Assembly (NCBI GenBank): GCA_019358935.1
Contig: JAHHIK010000098.1
Location: 1-29,506, forward strand
Direction of reading: 5' to 3'
Source: Tolypothrix carrinoi HA7290-LM1
Lineage (GTDB): Bacteria > Cyanobacteriota > Cyanobacteriia > Cyanobacteriales > Nostocaceae
DNA: 29,506 nucleotides
Part shown: positions 17,560 to 29,506 of the stretch, piece after piece
How the letters are laid out: each line of letters starts with the position of its first letter
How positions within the stretch are numbered: position 1 is the first letter of the stretch
Translations under genes and position numbers: made by a program
The notes under the pieces: generated by a model
The model's input: only the letters and a program-made list of their open reading frames with translations
Told to the model about the DNA's origin: nothing
Databases searched by the model: none

Positions 17560-17935
17560 ATGTCCCGGCATTTAGAACGGCTACTGCAAATAGATTCATT
17601 GTTAAGAACGGCAACGCGACAAACAAACGTAAGCCTTGCTCAAGAATTAGAAGTCAGCGAACGAACGATTCGTAACGATCTGGCTTTTTTACGCGATCGC
17701 TTTGATGCACCTTTGGAGTATACCCCGAAATTAGGTCATCACTACACTGATTCAGAATGGCGATTGCCGAGTATTTCTTTAACTAAAGGTGAGTTGTTTG
17801 CTCTTACCGTGGGTGCGAGGATGTTAGAAGCGTATGCTGGTTTACCTTATGCGTTGCAGTTGCGGTCGGCGATCGCACAACGCACGCAAACGTTTACCTG
17901 AGAAAACCTGGGTGAATGTGCAACAGCTAGCATAG
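17560..17935 (+). pseudogene. HTH-WYL transcriptional regulator, frameshifted and truncated (WYL domain lost)
   Basis: MSRHLERLLQID..LAQELEVSERTIRNDLAFLRDR wHTH. After LRSAIAQ the family-like sequence KRLPEKTWVNVQQLA continues in another frame and stops at about 17935. Confidence 0.85.
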
Positions 17936-18183
17936 GTCAATAAACCCTTTGCAGTTAATATCTTGTTCGCTTAATATGGGTGATTGCTGACAAGTCAAGT
18001 TTGATTAACTACTTTATTTCAAATTTTACCAGCTACATCAACTTTAAAAGTTGGTGTAATAAAGGCTGGGAAAATACTGTGGCTGAGTTCACCCTTCGGG
18101 TACGTCCGTTTGAACTCGACGGGAACCGCTAAGACTTCTGAGCAAATTTAGCGAGACAATAAATCGTTTATTTTCGACTAGCA

Positions 18184-18855
18184 ATGGATAACGTTATTAA
18201 TTTGTCTTTTCGGGTAAATGGTACCGAATTACCAGCCGATCATAACCATCGACTTTTAGCTGCTATCTGCAAGTTATTACCGCAGATACACAAATTAGAC
18301 AAAATAGCGATTAACACTATTACGGGTATCCCAAACAAACAGGGAAAAATCACCCTTACGCACAAATCTCGATTACTTTTGAGATTACCTGTAGAAGCGA
18401 TCGCTCAAGTTTATCCCCTCGTCAATCAAACTCTAGATATAGGTGGTTGCAAAATCCTACTGGGTGACGCAGAACTGCAAACTCTAAAACCAGTAGATAT
18501 CCTCAAAGCCAGACTGGTAACTATCAAAGGCTATACCGAACCGGAGACATTTTTAGGTGCTGCTCATCGTCAATTACAAGAATTAAGTATCAACGCTAAT
18601 GTTGGTATTCCTGCGAATGAAAAGGGTGAACCCAAACGCTTGACGCTCAAAATTAGACATGAAGAAAAACAGCACATAATTGTTGGTTTCAGTGTAATTG
18701 TTTCTGACCTGAGTCCAGAAGATTCAATCAAACTGCAAATTCACGGGTTGGGTGGTAAGCGTCGTCTTGGTTGCGGCATTTTCTGCCCAAATATTTCGGT
18801 TTATCAAAGCAATAGAGGTAATTTCAGTGCTGAATCCGAAAAAATTACTAGCTAA
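18184..18855 (+). CDS. cas6: Cas6 endoribonuclease, type I-B/I-MYXAN (Cmx6)
   Basis: LPADH, LKARLVTIKG, C-terminal G-rich loop GLGGKRRLGCGIF. Confidence 0.93.
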   Translation: MDNVINLSFRVNGTELPADHNHRLLAAICKLLPQIHKLDKIAINTITGIPNKQGKITLTHKSRLLLRLPVEAIAQVYPLVNQTLDIGGCKILLGDAELQTLKPVDILKARLVTIKGYTEPETFLGAAHRQLQELSINANVGIPANEKGEPKRLTLKIRHEEKQHIIVGFSVIVSDLSPEDSIKLQIHGLGGKRRLGCGIFCPNISVYQSNRGNFSAESEKITS

Positions 18856-19402
18856 AAGTCCTAAAGCAGATGGTGCAGAACTTACTCTTAATCAGCATTT
18901 AATTGATACTGATAACGCAGCACAGGCTATTTTCAGAGGAAGAATTTTAGATAACTGGTGTCGATTTTTTAAAGTTAAGGATGCTAGTAAATTTTTATAT
19001 CATTTACGAATAGCATCGCTTTTTCATGATATTGGCAAAGCAAATTCAGAGTTTTTAACAGGACTGAAAAGCAAGAAATACAAACAAAGTTTACGTCATG
19101 AATGGTTGAGTGCAATGATTTTGCATTTACCAAGCGTGAGGAAGTGGTTAGAGCCAAGTAAACTAGATTTGGAAGTTATTACGGCGGCTGTAAATTCTCA
19201 TCACCTCAAATCTCATCCAAAATGTTGGGGGATACCAAGAACACTTGTAAAGGAGTTTGAACTTTACATTAAAGAACCAGAAGTTATTAATATTCTGGAG
19301 AAAATAGGAAAAATTGCCGATGTTAATGGACTTCCAGAATTACCAGAGAGTTGGGTTGCAAGTGATAGGTTTTGGCAGCAAGTTTATCAACTTGACTTAT
19401 AA
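18827..19402 (+). pseudogene. cas3: Cas3 N-terminal HD nuclease fragment; helicase deleted
   Basis: RBS GAGGT plus GTG at 18827; LLAKS..TLNQHLIDT, LFHDIGKAN, RHEWLS, SHH; no helicase motifs. Confidence 0.88.
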
Positions 19403-20831
19403 AGCTTTTGCGGAAGAAAGATATACGGAGAAAAGGATAAACAATTATGACCGGGAAGAAACAGTTGAACTAACTGACAAAAATGGTAAAACTAAACAGG
19501 TTCAACGTTACTACTATACTGTTACAGTTCCAGAAGGTGCGTTTTTACCTGATTGGGATAAATCTAATGATGACCCGAATCATGGTATTTGGGTTAAATT
19601 ATGGCGGGATATGTTGTGGCAAATTGTTCGAGGTGTTCCAGCAACGCGCAACCCTTTTAATTTTCGAGTAAATGGTGCATCGTATTCACAAGATGTAGAA
19701 GCAATTTGGGCAGCATTACAACAGCCAGAAAAAATAATCGGACAGTCGGGTAATTATTACTTGGGTGCAACGGCAATAAATCCTGAAAATATACCAGTAA
19801 AAGATAAGGCAATATATCAATTTCTCTTACATTTTTGGGTTTTTGTCACGCAAGTGTATTCTCCCACAATTCTTGATAAAGATGGTCTGCGCGAGTTTGC
19901 TGGTTATGCTCTCGCAATTCCGGATGTCGCAAATCTGCGTAGATTTTGTAGTATTTTTCAGCAGGTACTAGCAGCACGCGAATCAGATAAATGGCGGCAT
20001 CTTCCACGGGAAGCTATTATTGATTTACCCGAAGAAGGTGCATTAGACCTACTATTACTTTTAGAAGACCGCATTAAACGTGAAATTGGCGGTCAACAAT
20101 TACGGCGTTTAATTTTAGGAATTGAACTCATCCATGCCGAAAAAGTAGGTAATAATATTAAAATTCGCTCGGTTAGTTATGTGGAACCAGTTACAAAACT
20201 AATTGATGATTACCGCACAATTAAAAAAATGTACTGGTGTCCTTGGTTCCGCAAGCAGCGATTAATTAATTTATTAAAGAATAAATCAGAGTCAGATGAG
20301 CAAGAAAATAATTTACCCCAGATTCAGCCGTGGAGTGATTTTGATGCTGTTTTAAGCCGGATTCCTCGAAAGTGGTTGCAAGACTCGTTATTTAGACATG
20401 ATGCTCGTGAATTCTTTAAACATGAAGTAAAAATTGATATGAAAAAAGAAATTCGTGATGATGCAAGAATTATTTATGATGTTTGCCAGCATTATGTTTT
20501 GAGTAAACTGGAATCAAAGTATGATTTGAAATGGGATAAATGCAAAGGTAATCCGAAAAAAGAAGAAGAGTAGAACGAAAAAAAATATAAGATTGCTAAT
20601 GAAGCATTTTTAGCAGTGCGATCGCGAACCGAAAAACAGGCTTTTATAGATTATTTTGTATCTACTCTCTACCCCTTTGTAAAAGAAAATGAATTCGTTG
20701 AATTTGCTAATACACTATTTAACAAATTTGATGAAATTCGTCCGCTAACACTTTTAGCGCTTTCCAGTCAGTATCCTCTAAACAAAAAGCCTGACGATAA
20801 AAGTTCTGAAACTACAGTAGAAGCAACATAA
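19392..20831 (+). pseudogene. cas8: Cas8 (Cmx8/Cas8a1-like, I-MYXAN) lacking its N-terminus, with an internal amber stop at 20571-20573
   Basis: P.GAFL, W.KLWRDMLWQI.RGVPATR.PF, QFLLHFW, GYALAIPDV. The frame continues through the TAG (EEE*NEKKYKIANEAFLAVRSRT..FIDYF..LTLLALS). Confidence 0.88.
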
Positions 20832-20886
20832 CCAAAAATTACCTTTGATTGCCTTTAGGCGTATAGTTGTTAAAAGGAAAATCGCC

Positions 20887-21807
20887 ATGAAAAAGAATTT
20901 GAATTTATTTGCCACAGTTTTGACTTATCCTGCACCATCAAGTAACTATCGGGGTGAATCTGAAGAAAATCGCACAGTTTTGCAAAAAATTTCCAAAAAT
21001 GGTCAAAAGTATGCTGTAGTTAGTCCGGAATCGTTGCGAAATGCATTGCGAGAAACTTTGATTTTAATGGAACAACCGCATAACCGCACGCGGATACATG
21101 ATGCAGACCAATTAGCTGTAGAATTTAAAGAATTTCCCAACGCTAGCAAGTATGCAGATGATTACTTGTTTGGCTTCATGGTGGCAAAACCAGAAGACGC
21201 AAAGAAAAATAAACCTTTACCACCAAAACGAGACAGCATTTTTCGCTGCAATATGGCAGTTGCATTAAGTCCTTACAAATATGATGCGGTGTTTCATCAA
21301 TCACCACTGAATGCCAAAACTAAAAATAATGAAAAGACCTATTGGAATAATGCCGGCACATCAGCACTGTTGCACCGTGAAGTCACGCATACCGCATTTC
21401 AGTATCCTTTTGCCTTATCTGGAAGGGATTGTCAGCAACATCCAGAATGGGTGCGGACATTATTGCAAGCGATCGCTCAACTTAATCGGGTTGCAGGTGG
21501 TCATGCTCGTGCTTATTATGAATTTGCACCCCGCTCTGTAGTAGCAAGGCTTACACCTAAGCTTGTGGCTGGTTACAACACTTATGGATTTAATGATGAT
21601 GGTGATTTCCCTGAGTTACTGCAAAGATTAGGGAAAGCCAACACAGAAAACTGTGACCTACCAGGAAATGAATTTTGGTTGGGTGGAGAAATCGTCCGCA
21701 ATTTAAATGAAGACACGAAAAAACGCTTGGAAGATGCGGGAGTAAATCTTTATGCTAACCCTGAGCATTTATTTGATGCATTGGCTAACCAGTTTTTAGA
21801 AGGTTGA
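20887..21807 (+). CDS. cas7: Cas7 / DevR backbone subunit
   Basis: SNYRGESEENRTVLQK, SPESLRNALRE, FHQSP, LLHREVTHTAFQYPF, VAGGHAR; RBS AAAGGA before ATG 20887. Confidence 0.93.
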   Translation: MKKNLNLFATVLTYPAPSSNYRGESEENRTVLQKISKNGQKYAVVSPESLRNALRETLILMEQPHNRTRIHDADQLAVEFKEFPNASKYADDYLFGFMVAKPEDAKKNKPLPPKRDSIFRCNMAVALSPYKYDAVFHQSPLNAKTKNNEKTYWNNAGTSALLHREVTHTAFQYPFALSGRDCQQHPEWVRTLLQAIAQLNRVAGGHARAYYEFAPRSVVARLTPKLVAGYNTYGFNDDGDFPELLQRLGKANTENCDLPGNEFWLGGEIVRNLNEDTKKRLEDAGVNLYANPEHLFDALANQFLEG

Positions 21808-21811
21808 GAGC

Positions 21812-22570
21812 ATGGCTAATCCTCATTCAGAATTAGTTGAGCTATTTTTACATCTGAAAGCACCATTTGCTGCATTTCGACCCTTTCAATCTGGTTCTTA
21901 TCGTTCGACAACAGCAGTACCATCACCTTCAACTGTGTATGGCTTAATACTCAATTTAGCCGGGATTGAACAGCGGAAAGAATTAGCTGCTCCTGTGACG
22001 CTTATCAAAGAAGATTTGCCAGAAATAGAAATTGCAATCGGGCAAGTTTCCCAGCCAGAAATAGCATTTCTTTCTCAGCAATTACATCAATATCCAGTCG
22101 GTGCATCCGGTGCAGAATTGGCGCAAAAGACATACGGTGCAAAGTATTGGATAGCTCCAGTGCGACGAGCAGTGTTAGTGAATCTAGATTTAATTGTGGG
22201 TGTACGGGCAGAAAAATGGTTGTGCGATCGCCTCGATTGGGTTCGGGTTCCAGACCTGACATATGTATCCTACAATCGTCTTGCTGTGGATTGGTTTGCA
22301 GATGAGGCTTGTCCTGTAATACCCGAATTAGCCATCGAAATTATTTCCCCTGGTCAAACTTTTGGCGAGATGACCGAAAAAGCAACTAACTATCTTAAAG
22401 CTGGTGTCTCTCGTGTTTGGGTTGTGGATACTAAAGCCAAGACTATCACGATTTTCTATCCCGATGCCCCACCTCAAACCAAACGAGGTGAAGATTCTTT
22501 AGAAGATTCGCTGTTTGAAAAGTTGCAAATTACACCCCAAGCAATCTTTCAACAAGCAGGAATTCCTTAA
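21812..22570 (+). CDS. cas5: Chimeric ORF: Cas5/DevS N-terminal ~140 aa fused in frame to the C-terminal part of a Uma2 endonuclease
   Basis: APFAAFRPFQSGSYRST..PSPSTVYGLILNLAG, QQLH.YPVG, K..IAPVRR (Cas5), then VPDLTYV..PELAIEIISP..KATNYLKAGVSRVWVVD (Uma2); junction at HIP1 22224-22231. Confidence 0.85.
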   Translation: MANPHSELVELFLHLKAPFAAFRPFQSGSYRSTTAVPSPSTVYGLILNLAGIEQRKELAAPVTLIKEDLPEIEIAIGQVSQPEIAFLSQQLHQYPVGASGAELAQKTYGAKYWIAPVRRAVLVNLDLIVGVRAEKWLCDRLDWVRVPDLTYVSYNRLAVDWFADEACPVIPELAIEIISPGQTFGEMTEKATNYLKAGVSRVWVVDTKAKTITIFYPDAPPQTKRGEDSLEDSLFEKLQITPQAIFQQAGIP

Positions 22571-22574
22571 AATA

Positions 22575-22668
22575 CAGGACTTACGCAAAAATTCTCTCTC
22601 TTCCTCATTCCTCTGTGAACTCTGCGTTCTCTGCGGTTCGTTTTTCCATGACAAGTGCGTAAGTCCTA
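22575..22668. repeat. MITE-like repeat with terminal inverted repeats
   Basis: CAGGACTTACGCA...TGCGTAAGTCCTA. Confidence 0.8.
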
Positions 22669-22670
22669 AA

Positions 22671-22706
22671 ATAGTATTTCCTCTGATGTCGTAAGGCGTA
22701 AAAATT
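22671..22706 (+). CRISPR. Single degenerate type I-B (I-MYXAN)-like CRISPR repeat; no array
   Basis: TGATGTCGTAAGGCGT (22684-22699) matches the remembered core TGATGCCGTAAGGCGT(TGAGCAC) at 15/16 positions; the 3' handle is missing; it lies just downstream of the cas genes in the same orientation. Confidence 0.6.
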
Positions 22707-22721
22707 ACAACTTCACTCTAG

Positions 22722-22922
22722 TTACTCCGTTCTCTTGTCCCGTTGAGTTGGATCTACTAAGTTGGCTTTTTTAACTTCTGGCTCGTAACCGCAGTTAACG
22801 CAGTGGAACAAGCGAACCCGCACTTCTTCTAAGTTGGCACGTAAGATCCAATACGGGAATAGTCCGTAAGCGTTACAGCCACAATTAGGGCAAGTGGAAA
22901 AAGAATCGTTTCTGTTAGTCAC
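22722..22922 (-). CDS. Small zinc-ribbon protein
   Basis: CPNC..CVNC; GTG start overlaps the recombinase stop (GTGA). Confidence 0.6.
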   Translation of the reverse strand: MTNRNDSFSTCPNCGCNAYGLFPYWILRANLEEVRVRLFHCVNCGYEPEVKKANLVDPTQRDKRTE

Positions 22923-24119
22923 TGTACAATTGCTTTTACCAATTCCTTAAATAGTAACTTTGCAGCTTTGGCACTAATGCGCGATCGCACTAATCGAACC
23001 GGACGACCGGCAGTTTTTTCAGCATCCAACTGAGAACCCAGAATTGCACCAATCTCATTATCAAGGCGGCAGCGCTTAACCTCGATGCGGGTGAAAACCC
23101 ATTGCCAGAAAGCAATACGGCACAAATCAGAACCACCGACAATTTTAATTTTAGTTTTATCGCCTGATGCTTCTAGGGAAGGTGCAAGCCCCAAGGACTT
23201 CTGAAAGCGGCGTAGTGACAGGTAGCGTTTTGTGGGCTTTCCAGACTTTCGACCCTTGCTAATTCTTACCTCTGGCTTACCGTCAGCACCAAAGTAATTT
23301 TCTAACGGGTAAATTTGACTGAGGATAATTGCCTCTAATCGCAACCCGAAACCAAAGGTTTTAAATACCTGGCGATAAGCCGTAAATTTCGGAGCGGTCA
23401 AAAGCTGCTGTAGTTCGACCTCAATACTGTGTTCTTCTCGCTGTAAGTCACATAAACGTCTTGCGTGATGCCGAACTGTTTCAGTAATGTCCAATCCAGC
23501 AGAGCGATCTAATATCGCGTCGTATCGTTTGATGAATGCGTTCCCCACACAACCACCCCCACAATAAGGGCACGTCACCATCAATTGCCCGTCGAGAATT
23601 TACGTGTGCGACTTCTGGGAATTGCCAAGCTAAGTCTTGACGCAAACGATTGATAATTGGCGATTGCACCCGGTTGAGGTGAGCAAGTCGCAACACCAAT
23701 TCTCTAATGCGGGTTGTGGTGAAATCGCGAATTTGTACAAAGCGCCTGGGGGAATCGAAATAGTCAAAGTAGTAACAGGCGAGTGCTAGTGCGTCGGCAT
23801 CGTCATCTTTGTCGGGCAGACTTAATTGGTGTTCCCGGTAATTTCTCAACTCTTTGTGTCCCACAAGTCTGACCTCGACCCCGGTACGAGCCAAGTGTGT
23901 TCCCCAAAGTTTTGAGTAATTTACACCAGTCGGCTCCATGAGTGCAATATCAGGATGCAGCGCCAGCAGTGCTTTTATTCCCTCGCTGTTGGCGCTAAAC
24001 GACATGAACGGACATTCATAGTAAAATTGACGAGGATCGCTTGGCTTGCTTTCGAGCAAGCACGCTCTAACTGAGGACTTGCTAATATCAAGCCCCAAAA
24101 TTCTTTTATTCTCTTGCAT
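22919..24119 (-). pseudogene. IS110-family (DEDD RuvC + Ser-containing Tnp domain) recombinase, single frameshift near 23530-23545
   Basis: GLDISK, MEPTG, KDDDADA (DEDD), NRLRQDLAWQFPE coiled coil; second frame has FGFGL and LGLAPSLEASG (catalytic-Ser motif). Confidence 0.88.
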
Positions 24120-24155
24120 TGGGTGTGGTTGTTGGTTATTAACCCCGTATAAAAA

Positions 24156-24352
24156 GCCTGCGAATCACCCAAAAGCACGTAGCCTAACTCACTCTTAAGG
24201 CTGCGTCAAAACGGGACCTTGACGCTACGAGGCAAGCTGTAGAAAGTGCAGTAACCGAGCTTGTGAAAAGGTAAAAGCAGTAATGCTTGATTCGTCCTGA
24301 AAGCCCTAAGTTGCTGCACTGTTTACAGGCGAATGATTTGGACTCGATCCGC
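24156..24352 (-). ncRNA. Structured ncRNA upstream of the IS110 recombinase, bridge-RNA-like
   Basis: Minus-strand stems AGTGCAGCAAC/GTTACTGCACT, GGGCTT/AAGCTC, AAGC/GCTT enclosing a 12x12 internal loop; CGTAGC/GCTACG, GCGTCAA/TTGACGC; closing AATCATTC/GGGTGATT. Confidence 0.65.
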
Positions 24353-24412
24353 GACTCCCCAGTGTGGGGAGTTTCGCCGGTGAGTTAGTCCGGCTCGTCA
24401 GGCCTAAAAATC
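24335..24412 (-). ncRNA. Hammerhead ribozyme (type I topology)
   Basis: CUGACGA (24401-24395), stem II GCCGG/CCGGC, GAAA (24375-24372), stem III CUCCCC/GGGGAG, GUC cleavage triplet (24355-24353); stem I is 2 bp plus an internal loop plus GAUUU/AAAUC. Confidence 0.88.
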
Positions 24413-24808
24413 GTCATCATCGTCATCATCGTCATCGTCATCGTCATCCTCTTCTGTGATGACCTCGGACTGTACAGTTACAGCAGTTAGCAAGTTCCGA
24501 AACTGAGGCATTGATGGCGCTTCTGGGTTTAGTCCTTGGGCTTTTAAGAAGTCGGCTGTCGCGTCCCACTCCTTACGTAGCTTGTCTAATTTTTCTTCTA
24601 AACGTTCGCATTCGCGGGCATGTTTTCTTGCATTGTCGTAAAATTCCTGTGCTGTTGGTCCGACGATGCTTTTTGCTTTTTCTCTCAATCGGACGACCAC
24701 AGATTCAACTGTTTCTTTTTCATCCAATTCAACAGAAAAACCGATTCTTTCGTTGTTGTAGCTACCAGTTGAAATTAGAAAATGTGCGTGTAGGCGTTTA
24801 ATTTTCAT
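24404..24808 (-). CDS. Hypothetical coiled-coil protein with poly-Asp C-terminal tail
   Basis: ATG at 24808 (MKIKRLHAHF..); the upstream extension in the ORF track overlaps the ATPase gene and a structured spacer. Confidence 0.7.
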   Translation of the reverse strand: MKIKRLHAHFLISTGSYNNERIGFSVELDEKETVESVVVRLREKAKSIVGPTAQEFYDNARKHARECERLEEKLDKLRKEWDATADFLKAQGLNPEAPSMPQFRNLLTAVTVQSEVITEEDDDDDDDDDDDDDF

Positions 24809-24911
24809 GGTGGTGATAAAATACTTCCGTCTGAGTTGTCGGAAGCGATGCCGAGTACGGCAACGTTTCGCGATCGCGCTCTGTGTGTGCAGAGTGCGAT
24901 CGCACTCCTCA

Positions 24912-26072
24912 TTATCCAAGCTTGCGCCGCAACTTCTCCAGCACGGTTTTACCTTCTGAGTAGCGTTTCCCGGTGAAACCGAGAATCTCAGTGACAATAT
25001 CGCTATCGGACTTTTCGGCTCCAAATCGCTGGATCATCCGCCAAAGTAGCTTGTCAGCGTCGGAACAATTTTCCTCCAAATCCGCCTCGGAAGCGGTTTT
25101 TAGGGCATTTTCTGGAGCATTTTGGGGCTGGATCGCGTTGTCACTACTTGGTGCTAGCATGGTTGAACCATGCCGGGATGATGCTGTCTTCATTTCCCTG
25201 TAACTTGGGAGTTTACAAGGACTATCGTCGAGCAGACAGTGCGACCGGTCTTGTTTTAACCAGTCAACAAGGTCGTTATTTTTCAAGGATTTGGCGTGGA
25301 TGAGCGCTTTTTTCCCCAGTCTTATGCGGTAAAAAGCGTCTGCCAAATCTGATTTACCCTCAAGTCCCCAAGCCGCTACTCGGTCATACTGCGAGAGTAA
25401 AACTGTAAACCGCCGCGCTTTACGACCTCTGCGGGCGTGACGCTCCAGCCATTCCCCAGACGAGGGGACTTTAGAAACCAGTTCCGGGTACTCCTCAACG
25501 ATAATTACCCGTTCTGTACCGTCTAACGCGCTGTCACCGCGCTCATTACGGGTTTTCATTTGTTTGGATAAATCCTCCAAATCTGACAACATTCCGCGCT
25601 CGATAGCCGCCCAATCCTCGCCTTTACCAACTACTTCAAGTCCCAGCCAGTCAGTAGGTGTACCCTCGCATTCGTATACCTTGACACGTCCGCCAACGGT
25701 GTAAGCTAGGTACTGAGCAATGGTTGACTTGCCTGTCCCCATCTCCCCAATCACCATTACTTGTTTGCCTTCAGTGGCGGCAACGAGATCGGTGATGATG
25801 TCGAGCGGTTCAGTGACGGTCGTTGCAGCGACATCGATGATGTTTTGCACTTCGGCACCCATATAGGGAAGCTGATCGTAAACTTTAAGCAGGTGCAAGG
25901 TGGTTTGACGTGTCATTTCGCACACGCCGATAGTCACTTTGCAGGCGATCGTAATGCCATGCAACCCAAATAACCATCCAGATAACATTACTCTCCCAGT
26001 TCCCCAAAGTGCGTATTTGGCAATTTCTTTGGGGCTTGGGAGGCGCATCGGTACCCAGTAATTATCTGCCAT
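24912..26072 (-). CDS. P-loop ATPase with N-terminal hydrophobic segment (FtsK/HerA/coupling-protein-like)
   Basis: Walker A GEMGTGKS, Walker B VIIVEE, RRGRK, LLSQ. Confidence 0.75.
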   Translation of the reverse strand: MADNYWVPMRLPSPKEIAKYALWGTGRVMLSGWLFGLHGITIACKVTIGVCEMTRQTTLHLLKVYDQLPYMGAEVQNIIDVAATTVTEPLDIITDLVAATEGKQVMVIGEMGTGKSTIAQYLAYTVGGRVKVYECEGTPTDWLGLEVVGKGEDWAAIERGMLSDLEDLSKQMKTRNERGDSALDGTERVIIVEEYPELVSKVPSSGEWLERHARRGRKARRFTVLLSQYDRVAAWGLEGKSDLADAFYRIRLGKKALIHAKSLKNNDLVDWLKQDRSHCLLDDSPCKLPSYREMKTASSRHGSTMLAPSSDNAIQPQNAPENALKTASEADLEENCSDADKLLWRMIQRFGAEKSDSDIVTEILGFTGKRYSEGKTVLEKLRRKLG

Positions 26073-26217
26073 AAAGTACCCCCTCTTTAAATGCCCGAAA
26101 ATCAGAGTTACATTGCGAAAGTGCTATTTGTAACTCAGCATTTTTGATGTGCAGCCAGATGGCGACGCCGAGCGCCGCCACTCCTAAAAATATGGGTGTA
26201 GCGTCGCTTTCTTTCAT
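26062..26217 (-). CDS. Small membrane protein, 51 aa (not in ORF track)
   Basis: MKESDATPIFLGVAALGVAIWLHIKNAELQ..GVLYGR; ATGA overlap upstream; contains GAGGGG RBS for the ATPase. Confidence 0.65.
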   Translation of the reverse strand: MKESDATPIFLGVAALGVAIWLHIKNAELQIALSQCNSDFRAFKEGVLYGR

Positions 26218-26390
26218 TCGTCGTTGACTTGCCCCTCAAGCCGAATTCTGGTTACTTCAACTTCAATGATTTCGGTGAGTTGCTCCAAGCCGATTTGCAA
26301 GTTTTCACGGGTGCTATCGTCAATGACGATCGGCGTGATTCCCATTGCTTCCCAAAAAGTTAGCTCTAGTGGATTTTTTTCTGGTTTCAT
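26214..26390 (-). CDS. Hypothetical protein, 58 aa (not in ORF track)
   Basis: MKPEKNPLELTFWEAMG..GQVNDE; ATGA overlaps at both ends. Confidence 0.65.
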   Translation of the reverse strand: MKPEKNPLELTFWEAMGITPIVIDDSTRENLQIGLEQLTEIIEVEVTRIRLEGQVNDE

Positions 26391-26593
26391 TCGTCGTTGC
26401 CTCTAGATTGGAGATATGGCAGCACTTGATTGATGATTTCCTGGTCTTGGGGTGTACGTCCCAAGTTAGGCGCTCCGGCTTCATCGGTGGCGATGATGGC
26501 AGCAGCTTTATATGTCAAGTCTTCGGGTACACCGCTTTCTTCACAGGCTCTTACAGTTGCACCCCAAAGGTTTGGGTCAAAAGATTTACTCAT
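26387..26593 (-). CDS. Hypothetical protein
   Basis: ATGA-coupled to both neighbours. Confidence 0.7.
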   Translation of the reverse strand: MSKSFDPNLWGATVRACEESGVPEDLTYKAAAIIATDEAGAPNLGRTPQDQEIINQVLPYLQSRGNDE

Positions 26594-26799
26594 CCGCCAA
26601 TCCTCCGATATATAAAAGTATTAGAGGCTGTAGATTCAGTAACTTTAATGTCCGCTTCATCCATGCTGGCGATAATGTCTGCCGTGCCGGTTGTGTCGTG
26701 CCGAATACTTTTTTCAATCATTGCGCCTAAACCGGGACGTGCAGCGTCAAATACCTCAATTACTTTTTGCTCTTTACTTGTAAGCGGTTTTTCTGACAT
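26590..26799 (-). CDS. Hypothetical protein
   Basis: Strong RBS TAAGGAG upstream; coupled downstream. Confidence 0.72.
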   Translation of the reverse strand: MSEKPLTSKEQKVIEVFDAARPGLGAMIEKSIRHDTTGTADIIASMDEADIKVTESTASNTFIYRRIGG

Positions 26800-26909
26800 T
26801 ATTGAATTGCTCCTTATTTTTATTTGGGGTCGAAACTTAGTATCCCCGTTACGGTTACTGAGTTTCGGGTTTTTACACTTTGAGAAAGCGATCGCACGGA
26901 AAGCGTAAT

Positions 26910-27164
26910 CTAAGCGATCGCTTTTTCATTGATGGTCAAATCTTCCAAAATATAAGTGGCAACAGTGGTTGCTAATTCCAGCAAGCCTGCGTCATCCATT
27001 TCGCAGTCAAGAATTGTTTGATGGGGAATATCGTTAAAGCCCCACTCCTTCCACTGATACTCAATTGTGGTTTTTTCGCGGATGGCTAAGAAAATTAAAC
27101 AGCCCAATCCGGTTAACTGGACGTGGTTTAGCTCGGTGAGGATTTCTTCGTGTTCTTCATTCAT
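26910..27164 (-). CDS. Hypothetical acidic protein
   Basis: ATG at 27164 overlaps the upstream stop (ATGA). Confidence 0.65.
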   Translation of the reverse strand: MNEEHEEILTELNHVQLTGLGCLIFLAIREKTTIEYQWKEWGFNDIPHQTILDCEMDDAGLLELATTVATYILEDLTINEKAIA

Positions 27165-27508
27165 GGTGCTGGTGTGTAGTGGTTTGAAAGTGAAACTCGG
27201 TAGCAACGTCCGCCGCCAACCATCAAAACCTCTCGGTCAGATAATCGCACAGCTTTCGAGCGAGAAACTTTCATCATGGGAAAGGAGCCATCGGGAGAGA
27301 GGCTGAAAAGTTCGTAGTTTTTTAAAAAGCTCCATTCGACAGGGGTTTTATCTGAAAGTCCGCTATAAGCCACAACTGTCATCTCAGTGGCAGATGTTGC
27401 GCTGGGTAAAGAGGGCAAATGACGGCGCTGTTTAGTGTCTTTGGTGGCTTTATTCCCAGGTTGTGACTGGGTTTTAGTGCCATTACTGTTGGTTTCTAGT
27501 GCTTCCAT
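27161..27508 (-). CDS. Hypothetical protein
   Basis: ATG-initiated 115-aa ORF co-oriented in the operon. Confidence 0.7.
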   Translation of the reverse strand: MEALETNSNGTKTQSQPGNKATKDTKQRRHLPSLPSATSATEMTVVAYSGLSDKTPVEWSFLKNYELFSLSPDGSFPMMKVSRSKAVRLSDREVLMVGGGRCYRVSLSNHYTPAP

Positions 27509-27543
27509 AGTTGGGTTTTAATCCCCTATTAAGGGCGATAAAA

Positions 27544-27822
27544 TTATTCTGTTTTAAGAGGCAGTAATGTCTGAAAGTGCCCAACGGTGGACTGTTCAGC
27601 CTCGTGAATCAGGGTGTTGATTATCAATTGCACAAGTTTTAGGCGCTCGTAATCAGTCAATGTTCCCAGGTAGTCCAACACTTCATCGTCAAGGTAGAAA
27701 AATAGCTCGTCTGACAATCCCTGAAAGTCATCGTCTGGAAACATCAAGCTACGGGAGAGTAGCTCTACAACTGACAATAAGTGGTCACGATTAAGCGTTC
27801 TTATTAGTTCTTGGTTGTTCAT
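27544..27822 (-). CDS. Hypothetical protein
   Basis: ATG at 27822 (MNNQELIRT..), acidic helical composition. Confidence 0.6.
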   Translation of the reverse strand: MNNQELIRTLNRDHLLSVVELLSRSLMFPDDDFQGLSDELFFYLDDEVLDYLGTLTDYERLKLVQLIINTLIHEAEQSTVGHFQTLLPLKTE

Positions 27823-27967
27823 CGCTAGATTCTGGTACTGCTTGTTGGGCTTCAAGTTCTGGCTCTTCTTCGTAGCATTTAGGGTTGCAAGCCTCCTGTA
27901 TGTGACCAATCTCTTGGAGATAACAAATATCGCATTCAAAGCAAATTCCCTTGGAGCTACTCATCAT
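27791..27967 (-). CDS. Small Cys-rich protein, 58 aa (not in ORF track)
   Basis: MMSSSKGICFECDICYLQEIGHIQEACNPKCYEEEPE..; GAGGA immediately upstream. Confidence 0.45.
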   Translation of the reverse strand: MMSSSKGICFECDICYLQEIGHIQEACNPKCYEEEPELEAQQAVPESSDEQPRTNKNA

Positions 27968-28164: not shown

Positions 28165-28213
28165 CTAGGCAATATAACTAGTATTTTTACTAGGAAATTT
28201 GCTTAGTTATAAT
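28165..28213. promoter_or_regulatory. Divergent promoter/operator region
   Basis: CTAG at 28165, 28178, 28190 and TTAG at 28203 (12-13 nt period); CTAGTA-TTTT-TACTAG palindrome; TATAAT at 28208-28213. Confidence 0.55.
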
Positions 28214-28216
28214 GCT

Positions 28217-28465
28217 ATGGTAAGAAAGAGAAAGAGTCAACCCCATTTACCTGAGGAAAACGTGGTGCCGCTAAAGGCTTTGCGTGAGGAGCTTAACATG
28301 ACCCAAGCTGAGTTTGCTGTAACTATCGGCATTGATCCATCTACGGTAAGCCGTTGCGAAAGAGGGATTGCCGAGCCAACTTTTACAGTCTTACAAATGA
28401 AGAAGCTGTGCAAGCTCACTGGGAAAGATGTTTTGGATTTTCCCGATCACCTAGGTAAATCCTAA
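28217..28465 (+). CDS. XRE-family HTH transcriptional regulator
   Basis: LKALREELNMTQAEFAVTIGIDPSTVSRCERGIAEP. Confidence 0.92.
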   Translation: MVRKRKSQPHLPEENVVPLKALREELNMTQAEFAVTIGIDPSTVSRCERGIAEPTFTVLQMKKLCKLTGKDVLDFPDHLGKS

Positions 28466-28470
28466 ATAAC

Positions 28471-28506
28471 AAGCCGTCCCCGCCTTGCGGTAGGGACGGC
28501 TTTTTG
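28471..28506 (+). terminator. Intrinsic terminator after xre
   Basis: AAGCCGTCCC..GGGACGGCTTTTTT. Confidence 0.8.
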
Positions 28507-28569
28507 ATGGGTGCGATCGCAGTGAAGTGCGATCGCGTCCAATGACTAATGCCCATTTAACCAAAACCT

Positions 28570-28821
28570 ATGAAACGAAACAGAAGAAGCGCACTTACAG
28601 AAGCTGCCCGGTCAAGCCCACTTTTCCAAGCAACAGAAACAGCGGGAGTCGAACTAACTAAACTTATCGACTTTATCGAATATCACAACCCGGACATAGA
28701 CAGAGCCACCGCCACGTTGACGGCTGCATTTGCCTTGCATGAGCTACGCGCTGCTTTCTTAGAGGAACCAGAGATGATGCAGCAGTTAAGGGCGATCGCA
28801 CTCTGGTTTTCTCAAAGATAA
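28570..28821 (+). CDS. Hypothetical protein
   Basis: 83-aa ATG ORF between two terminator-like hairpins. Confidence 0.65.
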   Translation: MKRNRRSALTEAARSSPLFQATETAGVELTKLIDFIEYHNPDIDRATATLTAAFALHELRAAFLEEPEMMQQLRAIALWFSQR

Positions 28822-29012
28822 AAAATTAAAAAGCCCCCCAGAACTTTAGCAAAGACGGGCGGCTTTTATTAAGTTGATTGAACTATAGGTACTTACGTAT
28901 CTGCTTAATCCGCTCACAAACCGCTTTCAATCACGCTCTTAATCGCTTTTATAAGAAGAATGCAAACTTCTGCAATCACGCACTTACTTTGTACAATCAT
29001 GCACTTACAATT

Positions 29013-29506
29013 ATGCCACAAAATCAATTAGTTTCTTTCCCCAATCGTGAAAATAAAGTTTCAGTAAAGTACAACAAACCTCATTGCATTATCCCCATAT
29101 CAGACATTACATGGATAACGCAACAAGTAAAAGCAGTTCAGACATTGTGGAATGAATGTTGGGTATCAGACCCATTTGGCAGTCGATGGGAGAAGCTATC
29201 AACCAACCTCACAGAAACAGCATTTAGGTTAGCTAGAAAGATTTTATACGCAGCTGGGCTATTTGAATTTAAGCGCGATACCTGCATACATGACAGTCGA
29301 AAAACAGCGGGCTGGTTGGTAATTAATCTTCATGGCGCTAGAAGAATTAAAGACTTTTGGTGCAGCGAAGAAACTGAAACGACATCCGACATAAACACGG
29401 CGACATCCGACATAAACACGGCGACATCCGACATAAACACGGCGATATCCGACACAAAATCAACGGTGGAAATTGTTGAAACCCCTGAATTTTCAAGCGT
29501 TTCAGA
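29013..29506 (+). CDS. Partial ORF (runs off the window), putative winged-helix replication initiator-like protein
   Basis: Open from ATG 29013 to the end: MPQNQLVSF..SDPFGSRW..AFRLARKILYAAGLFEF.. followed by (TSDINTA)n. Function is inferred from architecture only. Confidence 0.55.
   Translation, partial: MPQNQLVSFPNRENKVSVKYNKPHCIIPISDITWITQQVKAVQTLWNECWVSDPFGSRWEKLSTNLTETAFRLARKILYAAGLFEFKRDTCIHDSRKTAGWLVINLHGARRIKDFWCSEETETTSDINTATSDINTATSDINTAISDTKSTVEIVETPEFSSVS
29380..29460 (+). repeat. 21-nt tandem repeats, iteron-like
   Basis: CGACATCCGACATAAACACGG x3 perfect plus one degenerate copy. Confidence 0.9.

Follow-up and report, generated by a model that had tools for sequence, protein, structure and literature searches.

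A bridge RNA encoded upstream of an IS110-family recombinase gene in Tolypothrix carrinoi HA7290-LM1 appears to direct the insertion of a whole phage-like element, and a hammerhead motif on its 5' side suggests that the guide is released from an operon transcript by a ribozyme. We consider it probable that these three readings, namely the bridge RNA, insertion of the whole element, and ribozyme release, hold jointly. The DNA analyzed (the window) is a stretch of 29,506 nucleotides, contig C98 of an assembly (G000) in 184 contigs, in which the target-loop hairpin lies 120 to 210 nt upstream of the IS110 gene (PF01548). Comparison with homologous loci showed that the left strand of the target loop corresponds to the 5 to 6 bases left of a GA core and the right strand complements the 6 bases to its right; that a second loop matches AGAGT-GA-ATCCCCA, the ends of the element itself; and that, judged from those ends, the whole phage-like element is apparently inserted by the recombinase, its target being changed by ~11 loop bases per lineage.

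Guide loops of the bridge RNA

The initial annotation had proposed that a symmetric 12 × 12 internal loop predicts a DNA recognition site, as in the binding loops of bridge RNAs. The parts of the RNA, in window coordinates, are as follows.

24237–24328, minus strand: target-binding stem-loop (TBL) of the bridge RNA (fold z = −3.28; covariation)
24289–24300, minus strand: left target guide, reading AGGAC and core GA (4.6/5 left-flank match in 15 loci; junction AGGAC-GA-ATCCCC on contig C59)
24263–24274, minus strand: right target guide, the complement of GA-AAAGGT followed by 2 nt at the handshake-guide position (flank match; junction on contig C127)
24202–24226, minus strand: spacer hairpin between the two loops (predicted fold; variable or absent in homologues)
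24156–24201, minus strand: donor-binding loop (scaffold common to 39 loci; guide variants track end variants; tandem-copy junction)
24186–24197, minus strand: donor left guide, reading AGAGT-GA
24160–24172, minus strand: donor right guide, reading GA-ATCCCCA with one bulged U

The stems, the cap, and both 12-nt loop strands are present in the sequence as claimed. For the 95-nt stretch, the predicted fold leaves both loops open and has an energy of −28.0 kcal/mol, a stability that 0 of 200 shuffles equaled (z = −3.28). The expectation that the stems would covary was borne out in an alignment of 36 copies, from which three paralogues of the same genome were left out: 9 of the 20 consensus pairs have two-sided changes, and both loops are unpaired in the homologue consensus. 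Among 39 distinct RNAs parsed for loop statistics, the GAA and UUC triplets are nearly invariant (2.0 and 1.83 bits), and the six positions 5' of GAA (0.04 to 0.5 bits) and the five 5' of UUC (0.07 to 0.25 bits) are variable. Of the core initially proposed (GA/AA), GA stood, but the core is GA alone, 2 nt long; GA is found at both element ends, and since the base after it differs between the two ends in L023/L049, the core is fixed at 2 nt in this one case. By comparison of homologues, the 12 × 12 loop (minus strand, 24263 to 24300) is confirmed as the target-binding loop of an IS110 bridge RNA. No consistent rule for the handshake dinucleotides emerged by eye. A second recombinase clade (L129 to L163 and contig C102 of G000; 31 to 43% identity) has the same hammerhead, and its target loop was not parsed by the pattern used; C102, a distant copy of the IS110 unit, carries the same right-end motif as the family.

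Across homologues, the loops vary with the flanking DNA, as had been anticipated. The right end AGAGT-GA was located downstream in 34 of the 39 loci, and there the complement of the right guide matched the right flank at a mean of 4.09 of 5 variable positions, against 1.49 for shuffled pairs (maximum, 2.24 in 10,000), a comparison that, like the other shuffle tests, overstates independence because kin share sequence. The match was perfect in 19 of the 34 loci and at least 4/5 in 26 (L023 was shifted one base by hand), with matching in 25 to 33 of 34 at positions +1 to +6 and in 10 to 12 of 34 beyond. For 21 guide/flank pairs not used before, the mean was 3.67/5 versus 1.42 shuffled. Counting against the best explanation, the right flank was matched at no more than 3/5 positions in 8 of the 34 loci, the window copy included. 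Of 31 larger loci, 15 yielded the left end, GA-ATCCCC, and 15 of the 16 misses had less than 13.3 kb of upstream DNA. The left guide fitted the bases before the left end at a mean of 4.6/5, perfectly in 13 of the 15, against 1.62 shuffled (maximum, 3.2); the better of two sites was used in L043, and L041 and L042 share one guide.

With respect to the site itself, 13 of the 17 bases predicted by the initial annotation were right, the functional site being AGGAC-GA-AAAGGT rather than all 17. The halves that it expected at element ends occur in G000 as one left junction, AGGAC-GA-ATCCCC on C59, and one right junction, AGAGT-GA-AAAGGT on C127, and the intact site was recovered as TAGGAC-GA-AAAGGT at the orthologous empty locus in two further genomes (G183 and G203); the orthologous locus is one base off in G168 and occupied in G195. 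The 17-mer is absent from the window, as had been read by eye, even with up to 3 mismatches allowed. The bare 13-mer was present in 3 of 11 genomes of the genus versus 9 control hits, so that this pattern alone is no evidence, and its match in G025 is one without demonstrated orthology. In G000, C127 holds a further copy with the same loops as the window, and the copies on C12 and C49 have the same stems but different loops, with guides that match left junctions on C47 and C120. On contig C1 of G042 (L013/L038 and L039), the left flank of one element fits the left guide of the other, and in L013 the right end is followed by left-end-like sequence; L013/L038 and L039 possibly reflect recombination between two elements.

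The second binding loop, which had been placed with less clarity at 24176 to 24230, does exist, at 24156 to 24201. Taken alone, the donor loop of the window copy does not fold above chance (z = −0.20). A donor guide variant, AGACTGA, is paired with an AGACTGA end in L022, L025, L028, and L059, as is GGAGTGA in L021; these ends were searched with the guide's own 7-mer and were found 1.24 to 1.42 kb downstream, followed by a guide-matching flank. The right donor strand has one extra base, and its pairing with GA-ATCCCCA requires one bulged U; read without the bulge, it led to no left end. Because this guide is invariant, it provides a match but no covariation. In G037 (contig C10), two identical 15.4-kb copies lying head to tail show the joined element ends, i.e., the donor junction. 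By eye and uncounted, several ends in L035 to L054 have a 2- to 3-bp inverted flank (ACT/CT before AGAGT, AG/AGT after ATCCCC), resembling the short subterminal repeats noted for IS110.

A hammerhead motif at the 5' side of the guide

The initial annotation, whose bridge-RNA reading is supported overall, noted neither the size of the element nor the motif that precedes the RNA, and it had no means of seeing that the guide in the window misfits its own insertion site.

24349–24403, minus strand: type I hammerhead motif (one of 4 genome-wide descriptor hits)
24395–24401, minus strand: hammerhead core CUGACGA
24376–24394, minus strand: stem II, 5 bp
24372–24375, minus strand: hammerhead GAAA
24355–24371, minus strand: stem III, 7 bp
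24353, minus strand: predicted cut, 3' of the C of GUC
24329–24352, minus strand: hairpin at the predicted new 5' end after cleavage, competing with hammerhead stem I (predicted folds, 36 loci)

The order after the upstream stop codon is CUGACGA, hairpin, GAAA, hairpin, GUC, and GCGG. A descriptor located the motif directly 5' of the bridge RNA in 36 of the 39 loci; of the loci missed, L010 has the motif with a long stem II insert, L015 (= L111) has a long stem III, and in C49 a deletion has removed the 5' half. A stricter genome-wide scan gave 4 hits in 7.96 Mb, 4/4 of them before this IS110 family. Stem III positions 2 to 5 are paired in 34 to 36 of 36 loci with 3 to 6 pair types, and stem I pairs 1 and 2 are invariant and thus lend no covariation support. 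In a wider set of 89 loci, which includes some members of the first 39, the strict motif matched 52 (32 of the 49 close loci and 20 of the 40 distant ones) versus 0 of 78 control windows, and a looser motif matched 32 of the other 37 versus 2 of 82 controls (the L112 match looks spurious by eye). Since 5 of the 89 loci are without the motif, the hammerhead is dispensable in some lineages. The hammerhead core is absent from L127, L128, and L180, in which a conserved GUCCAAA hairpin region and the target-loop scaffold are kept; these loci form natural controls for the role of the ribozyme. L010, L098, L016, L017, L042, and L118 retain the core and have long inserts in stem II or III; these inserts are possible regulatory modules. 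Loop II is complementary to the 3' strand over a mean run of 4.47 versus 3.65 shuffled (0 of 5,000), a modest effect among nonindependent kin, and over only 3 nt in C12 and C127. Rfam gave no hammerhead match for window positions 22000 to 26500 (E up to 1) or for 10 homologous loci (E up to 5). Across loci, a predicted hammerhead with covarying stems is shown to be tied to the 5' side of the bridge RNA, and it probably cuts the guide out of the operon transcript.

One rival explanation accepts the bridge RNA and takes the hammerhead for an ordinary prophage mRNA-processing ribozyme that separates the recombinase message from the upstream operon and is of minor importance for the guide. We regard it as somewhat unlikely. 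The loci that lack the motif speak for it, as do parts of the literature in which bacterial hammerheads often neighbor integrase genes and lie between genes of prophages (PMC3088659) and extended IS621 RNAs stay active (PMC13626964). Weighing against it are the near-fixed distance of 151 to 192 nt between cut site and donor guide (36 loci), the double role of the 3' stem I strand, which is also the first strand of the predicted 5' hairpin, and the retention of the motif with recombinases down to ~31% identity together with its absence elsewhere in the genome. A hammerhead-like motif that is catalytically dead and acts as a structural or regulatory leader seems quite improbable: the first two core bases vary in 5 of 36 loci, a one-base insertion is present in 2 of 36, stem I is short, and Rfam gave no match, but the core is canonical in 29 of 36 loci, and the sole change in the cut triplet is from GUC (32 loci) to GUA (4 loci), which the NUH rule allows (passages of PMC3088659). 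The window copy has a canonical core, a stem I of 2 pairs, and a lowest-energy fold that is not the hammerhead, which counts against activity in this copy.

If the hammerhead releases the guide, the guide would be transcribed within the co-oriented operon, the hammerhead would cleave after GUC, and the freed end would refold as a 5' hairpin. The product would be a ~200-nt RNA arranged as in IS621, with a 5' hairpin followed by the target loop and then the donor loop, and it would initially remain attached to the recombinase mRNA. Loading of the RNA onto the recombinase would be followed by excision and insertion as for IS621, from which circle formation and strand exchange at GA are assumed. 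As described in parts of PMC13626964, weak read-through and a junction promoter supply the bridge RNA of IS621, and a 5' extension leaves IS621 bridge RNAs functional, with activity about two-fold lower when both ends are extended. Here, the end junction, the place of the promoter in IS621, is 10 to 16 kb from the RNA, and we thus infer that the RNA is made inside the operon transcript. Because extended IS621 RNAs work, the hammerhead may improve or time guide production, or may mainly process the recombinase mRNA, and the guide may work without cutting. Promoter and terminator scans gave chance-level results.

The recombinase, the 11- to 17-kb element, and the window copy

The remaining features run from the right end of the element through the recombinase gene and, beyond the bridge RNA, into the cargo.

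22707–22712, minus strand: host right flank AGTTGT, a misfit to the window guide (2/5 variable positions)
22713–22721, minus strand: element right end, CTAGAGT and core GA (empty site in G025)
22722–22922, minus strand: small Cys-rich ORF in the variable slot that separates recombinase and right end (PF07282 below the cut-off)
22919–23584, minus strand: IS110 recombinase, C-terminal part carrying the serine motif, in the other frame (83% identity with the intact paralogue on C12)
23481–24119, minus strand: IS110 recombinase, N-terminal DEDD part (Pfam PF01548, E 4.9e-08; alignment)
24404–27939, minus strand: co-oriented cargo operon with a 135-aa ORF (stop abutting the hammerhead), a 386-aa P-loop protein, and small ORFs (homologues inside complete elements)
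28199–29506, no strand assigned: XRE-type HTH gene, small ORF, 21-bp direct repeats (29398–29439), and a cut ORF

The recombinase frame is broken near 23530 in the window, a break shared by the C127 copy. PF01548 and PF02371 were above the cut-off in the intact homologues L052 and L043, and four motifs that we take to hold the catalytic residues (DEDD of the RuvC-like domain and the serine of the Tnp domain) are present in 33, 33, 32, and 33 of 33 intact recombinases. A PDB sequence search at E up to 1 gave no match, a point of difference from the IS621 system. DNA matches to the family were found in 71 of 201 genomes of the host's taxonomic family and protein matches at E 1e-20 in 28 of 301 genomes sampled from the phylum; named records with related loci include Nostoc, Tolypothrix, Calothrix, and Microcoleus. 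A plasmid search yielded 2 records with related loci, and the viral contigs and GenBank phages searched yielded none. Decayed recombinase remnants are many in G000 (C21, C30, C33, C45, C49, C55, C145, C146, C147, and C178), the right-end motif still terminating most of them, so that the IS110 family appears to have struck this genome repeatedly.

Element length is 11,087 to 17,116 bp (13 of 14 elements, both ends in view), and the bridge RNA is 9.6 to 15.9 kb from the left end (14 elements). Gene order is conserved. A short tyrosine recombinase of 192 to 195 aa is carried by 14/14 elements, which counts against the best explanation; a long protein family, split in pieces in some, is present in 13 of the 14, families of ~280, 150, and 110 aa in 10, 9, and 10, an amidase in 3, and the P-loop protein in only 4 plus the window. 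Cargo proteins, most of them taken from L052, L043, and L035, were compared with Pfam (44 proteins) and PHROGs (33 proteins), which gave amidase/endolysin, one tail-fiber match, and integrase-family and excisionase-like matches, and none to capsid, portal, terminase, coat, or Zot proteins. Two core cargo proteins were folded (pLDDT 89.5 and 82.8); for neither did a viral match reach E 0.001, and their best structural matches had Z values of 3.8 and 5.1, with atlas hits below 0.9. Since no capsid or packaging gene was identified and the two folds gave no match, the element is called phage-like rather than phage; with ends 11 to 17 kb apart around conserved phage-like genes, the recombinase would serve as its integrase. 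The C-terminal domain of the ~280-aa core cargo protein (L043, 5674 to 6519) is weakly like 2H phosphoesterases (Z ~5, within background). CRISPR spacers of G000 did not match the elements, the single hit being a non-CRISPR repeat. By their guide-matched ends, these elements appear to form a common class in filamentous cyanobacteria, with genes without an assigned family.

Alternatively, the IS110 unit could be a passenger, or an insertion sequence that has progressively expanded, with the tyrosine recombinase or no dedicated enzyme moving the larger unit. Although the tyrosine recombinase is in every element and cargo-adding IS110 loci have been described (parts of bioRxiv 10.64898/2026.08.14.744561), we consider this highly improbable. 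Both outer boundaries fit the guides (left ends 5/5 in 13 of 15), full donor half-sites are present at both ends where passages of that preprint report mostly single matches, and the mid-element tyrosine recombinase is part of a conserved gene order.

The window copy sits at TGTAAG-GA-AGTTGT, a site that is empty in G025. This copy runs past the contig end: C98 holds 6.8 kb of it and C119 another 8.2 kb; its left half (C119, 1 to 8232) includes the left junction and has homologues of five shared genes. Its guide matches its own insertion site at 1/5 left and 2/5 right positions and fits instead the site of the sister element on C59/C127. A patch of ~1,000 nt that starts at the guide and reaches into the gene, the frameshift included, is the same as in C127 save for one indel, and outside this patch the flanking parts resemble C12. 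Gene conversion, in which the guide was overwritten from the C127 sister, is the simplest reading and probably the correct one, with mobilization in trans as an alternative. The mismatch might also be produced by assembly collapse with the C127 copy, given the near-identity of ~1,000 nt, frameshift and all, in an assembly of 184 contigs; this seems improbable because copy-specific differences at 24310 to 24322 lie 10 to 22 nt from the left guide and the one indel, at 24216, is within the shared patch. The window copy is degraded: its recombinase is frameshifted, its hammerhead has a stem I of just 2 bp, and its guide misfits its own site. It is probably inactive.

Several observations concern the surrounding sequence. 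The 21-bp direct repeats at 29398 to 29439, inside the cut ORF at the contig end, also occur upstream of the C49 remnant and are a possible replication origin of the element. Window positions 17560 to 22570 hold Type I-B cas genes (HTH, cas6, Cas3 HD part only, cas8b, cas7, and cas5); cas7 was identified by reading, without a Pfam hit, and the shortened cas5 continues in frame into a Uma2 nuclease domain. The element (22713; C119, 8232 to 8897) directly precedes a cas4-cas1-like start codon (family read from translation). In G000, the match to G025 on that side extends over just 165 nt, after which comes a 7-repeat CRISPR array, so that the adaptation gene looks deleted. A ~95-nt dispersed repeat with many genome-wide copies occupies 22575 to 22670 and is absent from the orthologous place in G025.

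Relation to known systems and implications

The system resembles IS621 as presented in passages of Durrant et al. 2024 (PMC11208160): a DEDD plus Transposase_20 recombinase, an RNA upstream of the gene, the order of 5' hairpin, target loop, and donor loop, four guides that all read a 2-nt core, and discontiguous right donor pairing. It differs in its core, which is GA here and CT in IS621, in having ~5 to 6 left and 6 right target bases beside that core, and in an RNA 10 to 16 kb inside the element, whereas that of IS621 lies in the short left end by the junction promoter. The internal position separates these units from compact IS621-type elements, not from bridge systems. A natural hammerhead motif precedes the RNA here, whereas the ribozyme passages of PMC11208160 concern an engineered HDV ribozyme.

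An end-placed IS110-family gene, thought to be an integrase, is also described for filamentous proviruses (Neisseria Nf and Thermus Zuza8/Zuza27/phiOH16, PMC11437467; Acinetobacter Af1, PMC11209303), and the passages on them in these papers describe no guide RNA. Those proviruses are inoviruses (Af1 is 7.2 kb, with Zot and coat genes), whereas the scanned cargo here has no Zot, coat, capsid, or terminase match; against the inovirus pattern of ~5 to 12 kb with a Zot/pI ATPase and small coat genes, the present elements are 11 to 17 kb with no Zot match. Expanded IS110 loci, in parts of bioRxiv 10.64898/2026.08.14.744561, likewise far exceed 1.5 kb, with whole-unit mobility mostly below 20 kb, but their cargo is largely plasmid derived and added stepwise and their ends half match, in contrast to the conserved order and two matching ends found here; the terms "cyanobacter," "prophage," and "ribozyme" have 0 occurrences in the main text of that preprint.

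Like the pseudoknotted bacterial and prophage hammerheads in passages of Perreault et al. 2011 (PMC3088659), the motif has a canonical core and three stems and lies between mobile-element genes; a loop-to-tail pseudoknot may be a further likeness, the complementarity here being modest. Unlike them, its downstream product would be a DNA-guiding RNA, and it matches no Rfam model; "transposase," "cyanobacter," and "Nostoc" have 0 occurrences in the main text of that paper. A preprint (10.64898/2026.10.21.760802) clusters bridge RNAs and reports a hammerhead cluster below Rfam level, which could be the family described here. A literature search, with subscription papers mostly outside its scope, found no link between hammerheads and bridge RNAs or IS110. 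Bridge RNAs, large IS110 units, IS110 provirus integrases, and prophage hammerheads are each already known; in the literature searched, neither all four together nor a bridge RNA with a natural ribozyme was encountered.

With respect to how a bridge RNA is made before circularization, for which the published answer in IS621 is weak read-through (PMC13626964), this family suggests self-cleavage from an operon transcript as another route. Intact orthologues are numerous in this family, with GA as their core and natural cargo of 11 to 17 kb, and a self-processing guide could be expressed from any mRNA. More tentatively, and with slightly less than even confidence, we propose that these elements are widespread, undescribed small temperate viruses or satellites of cyanobacteria in which a bridge recombinase is the integrase and the guide is self-cleaved from the element's own operon transcript. 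If so, a fold switch between the hammerhead and the 5' hairpin would set when the guide is produced, and changes in ~11 guide bases would give each lineage a new attachment site.
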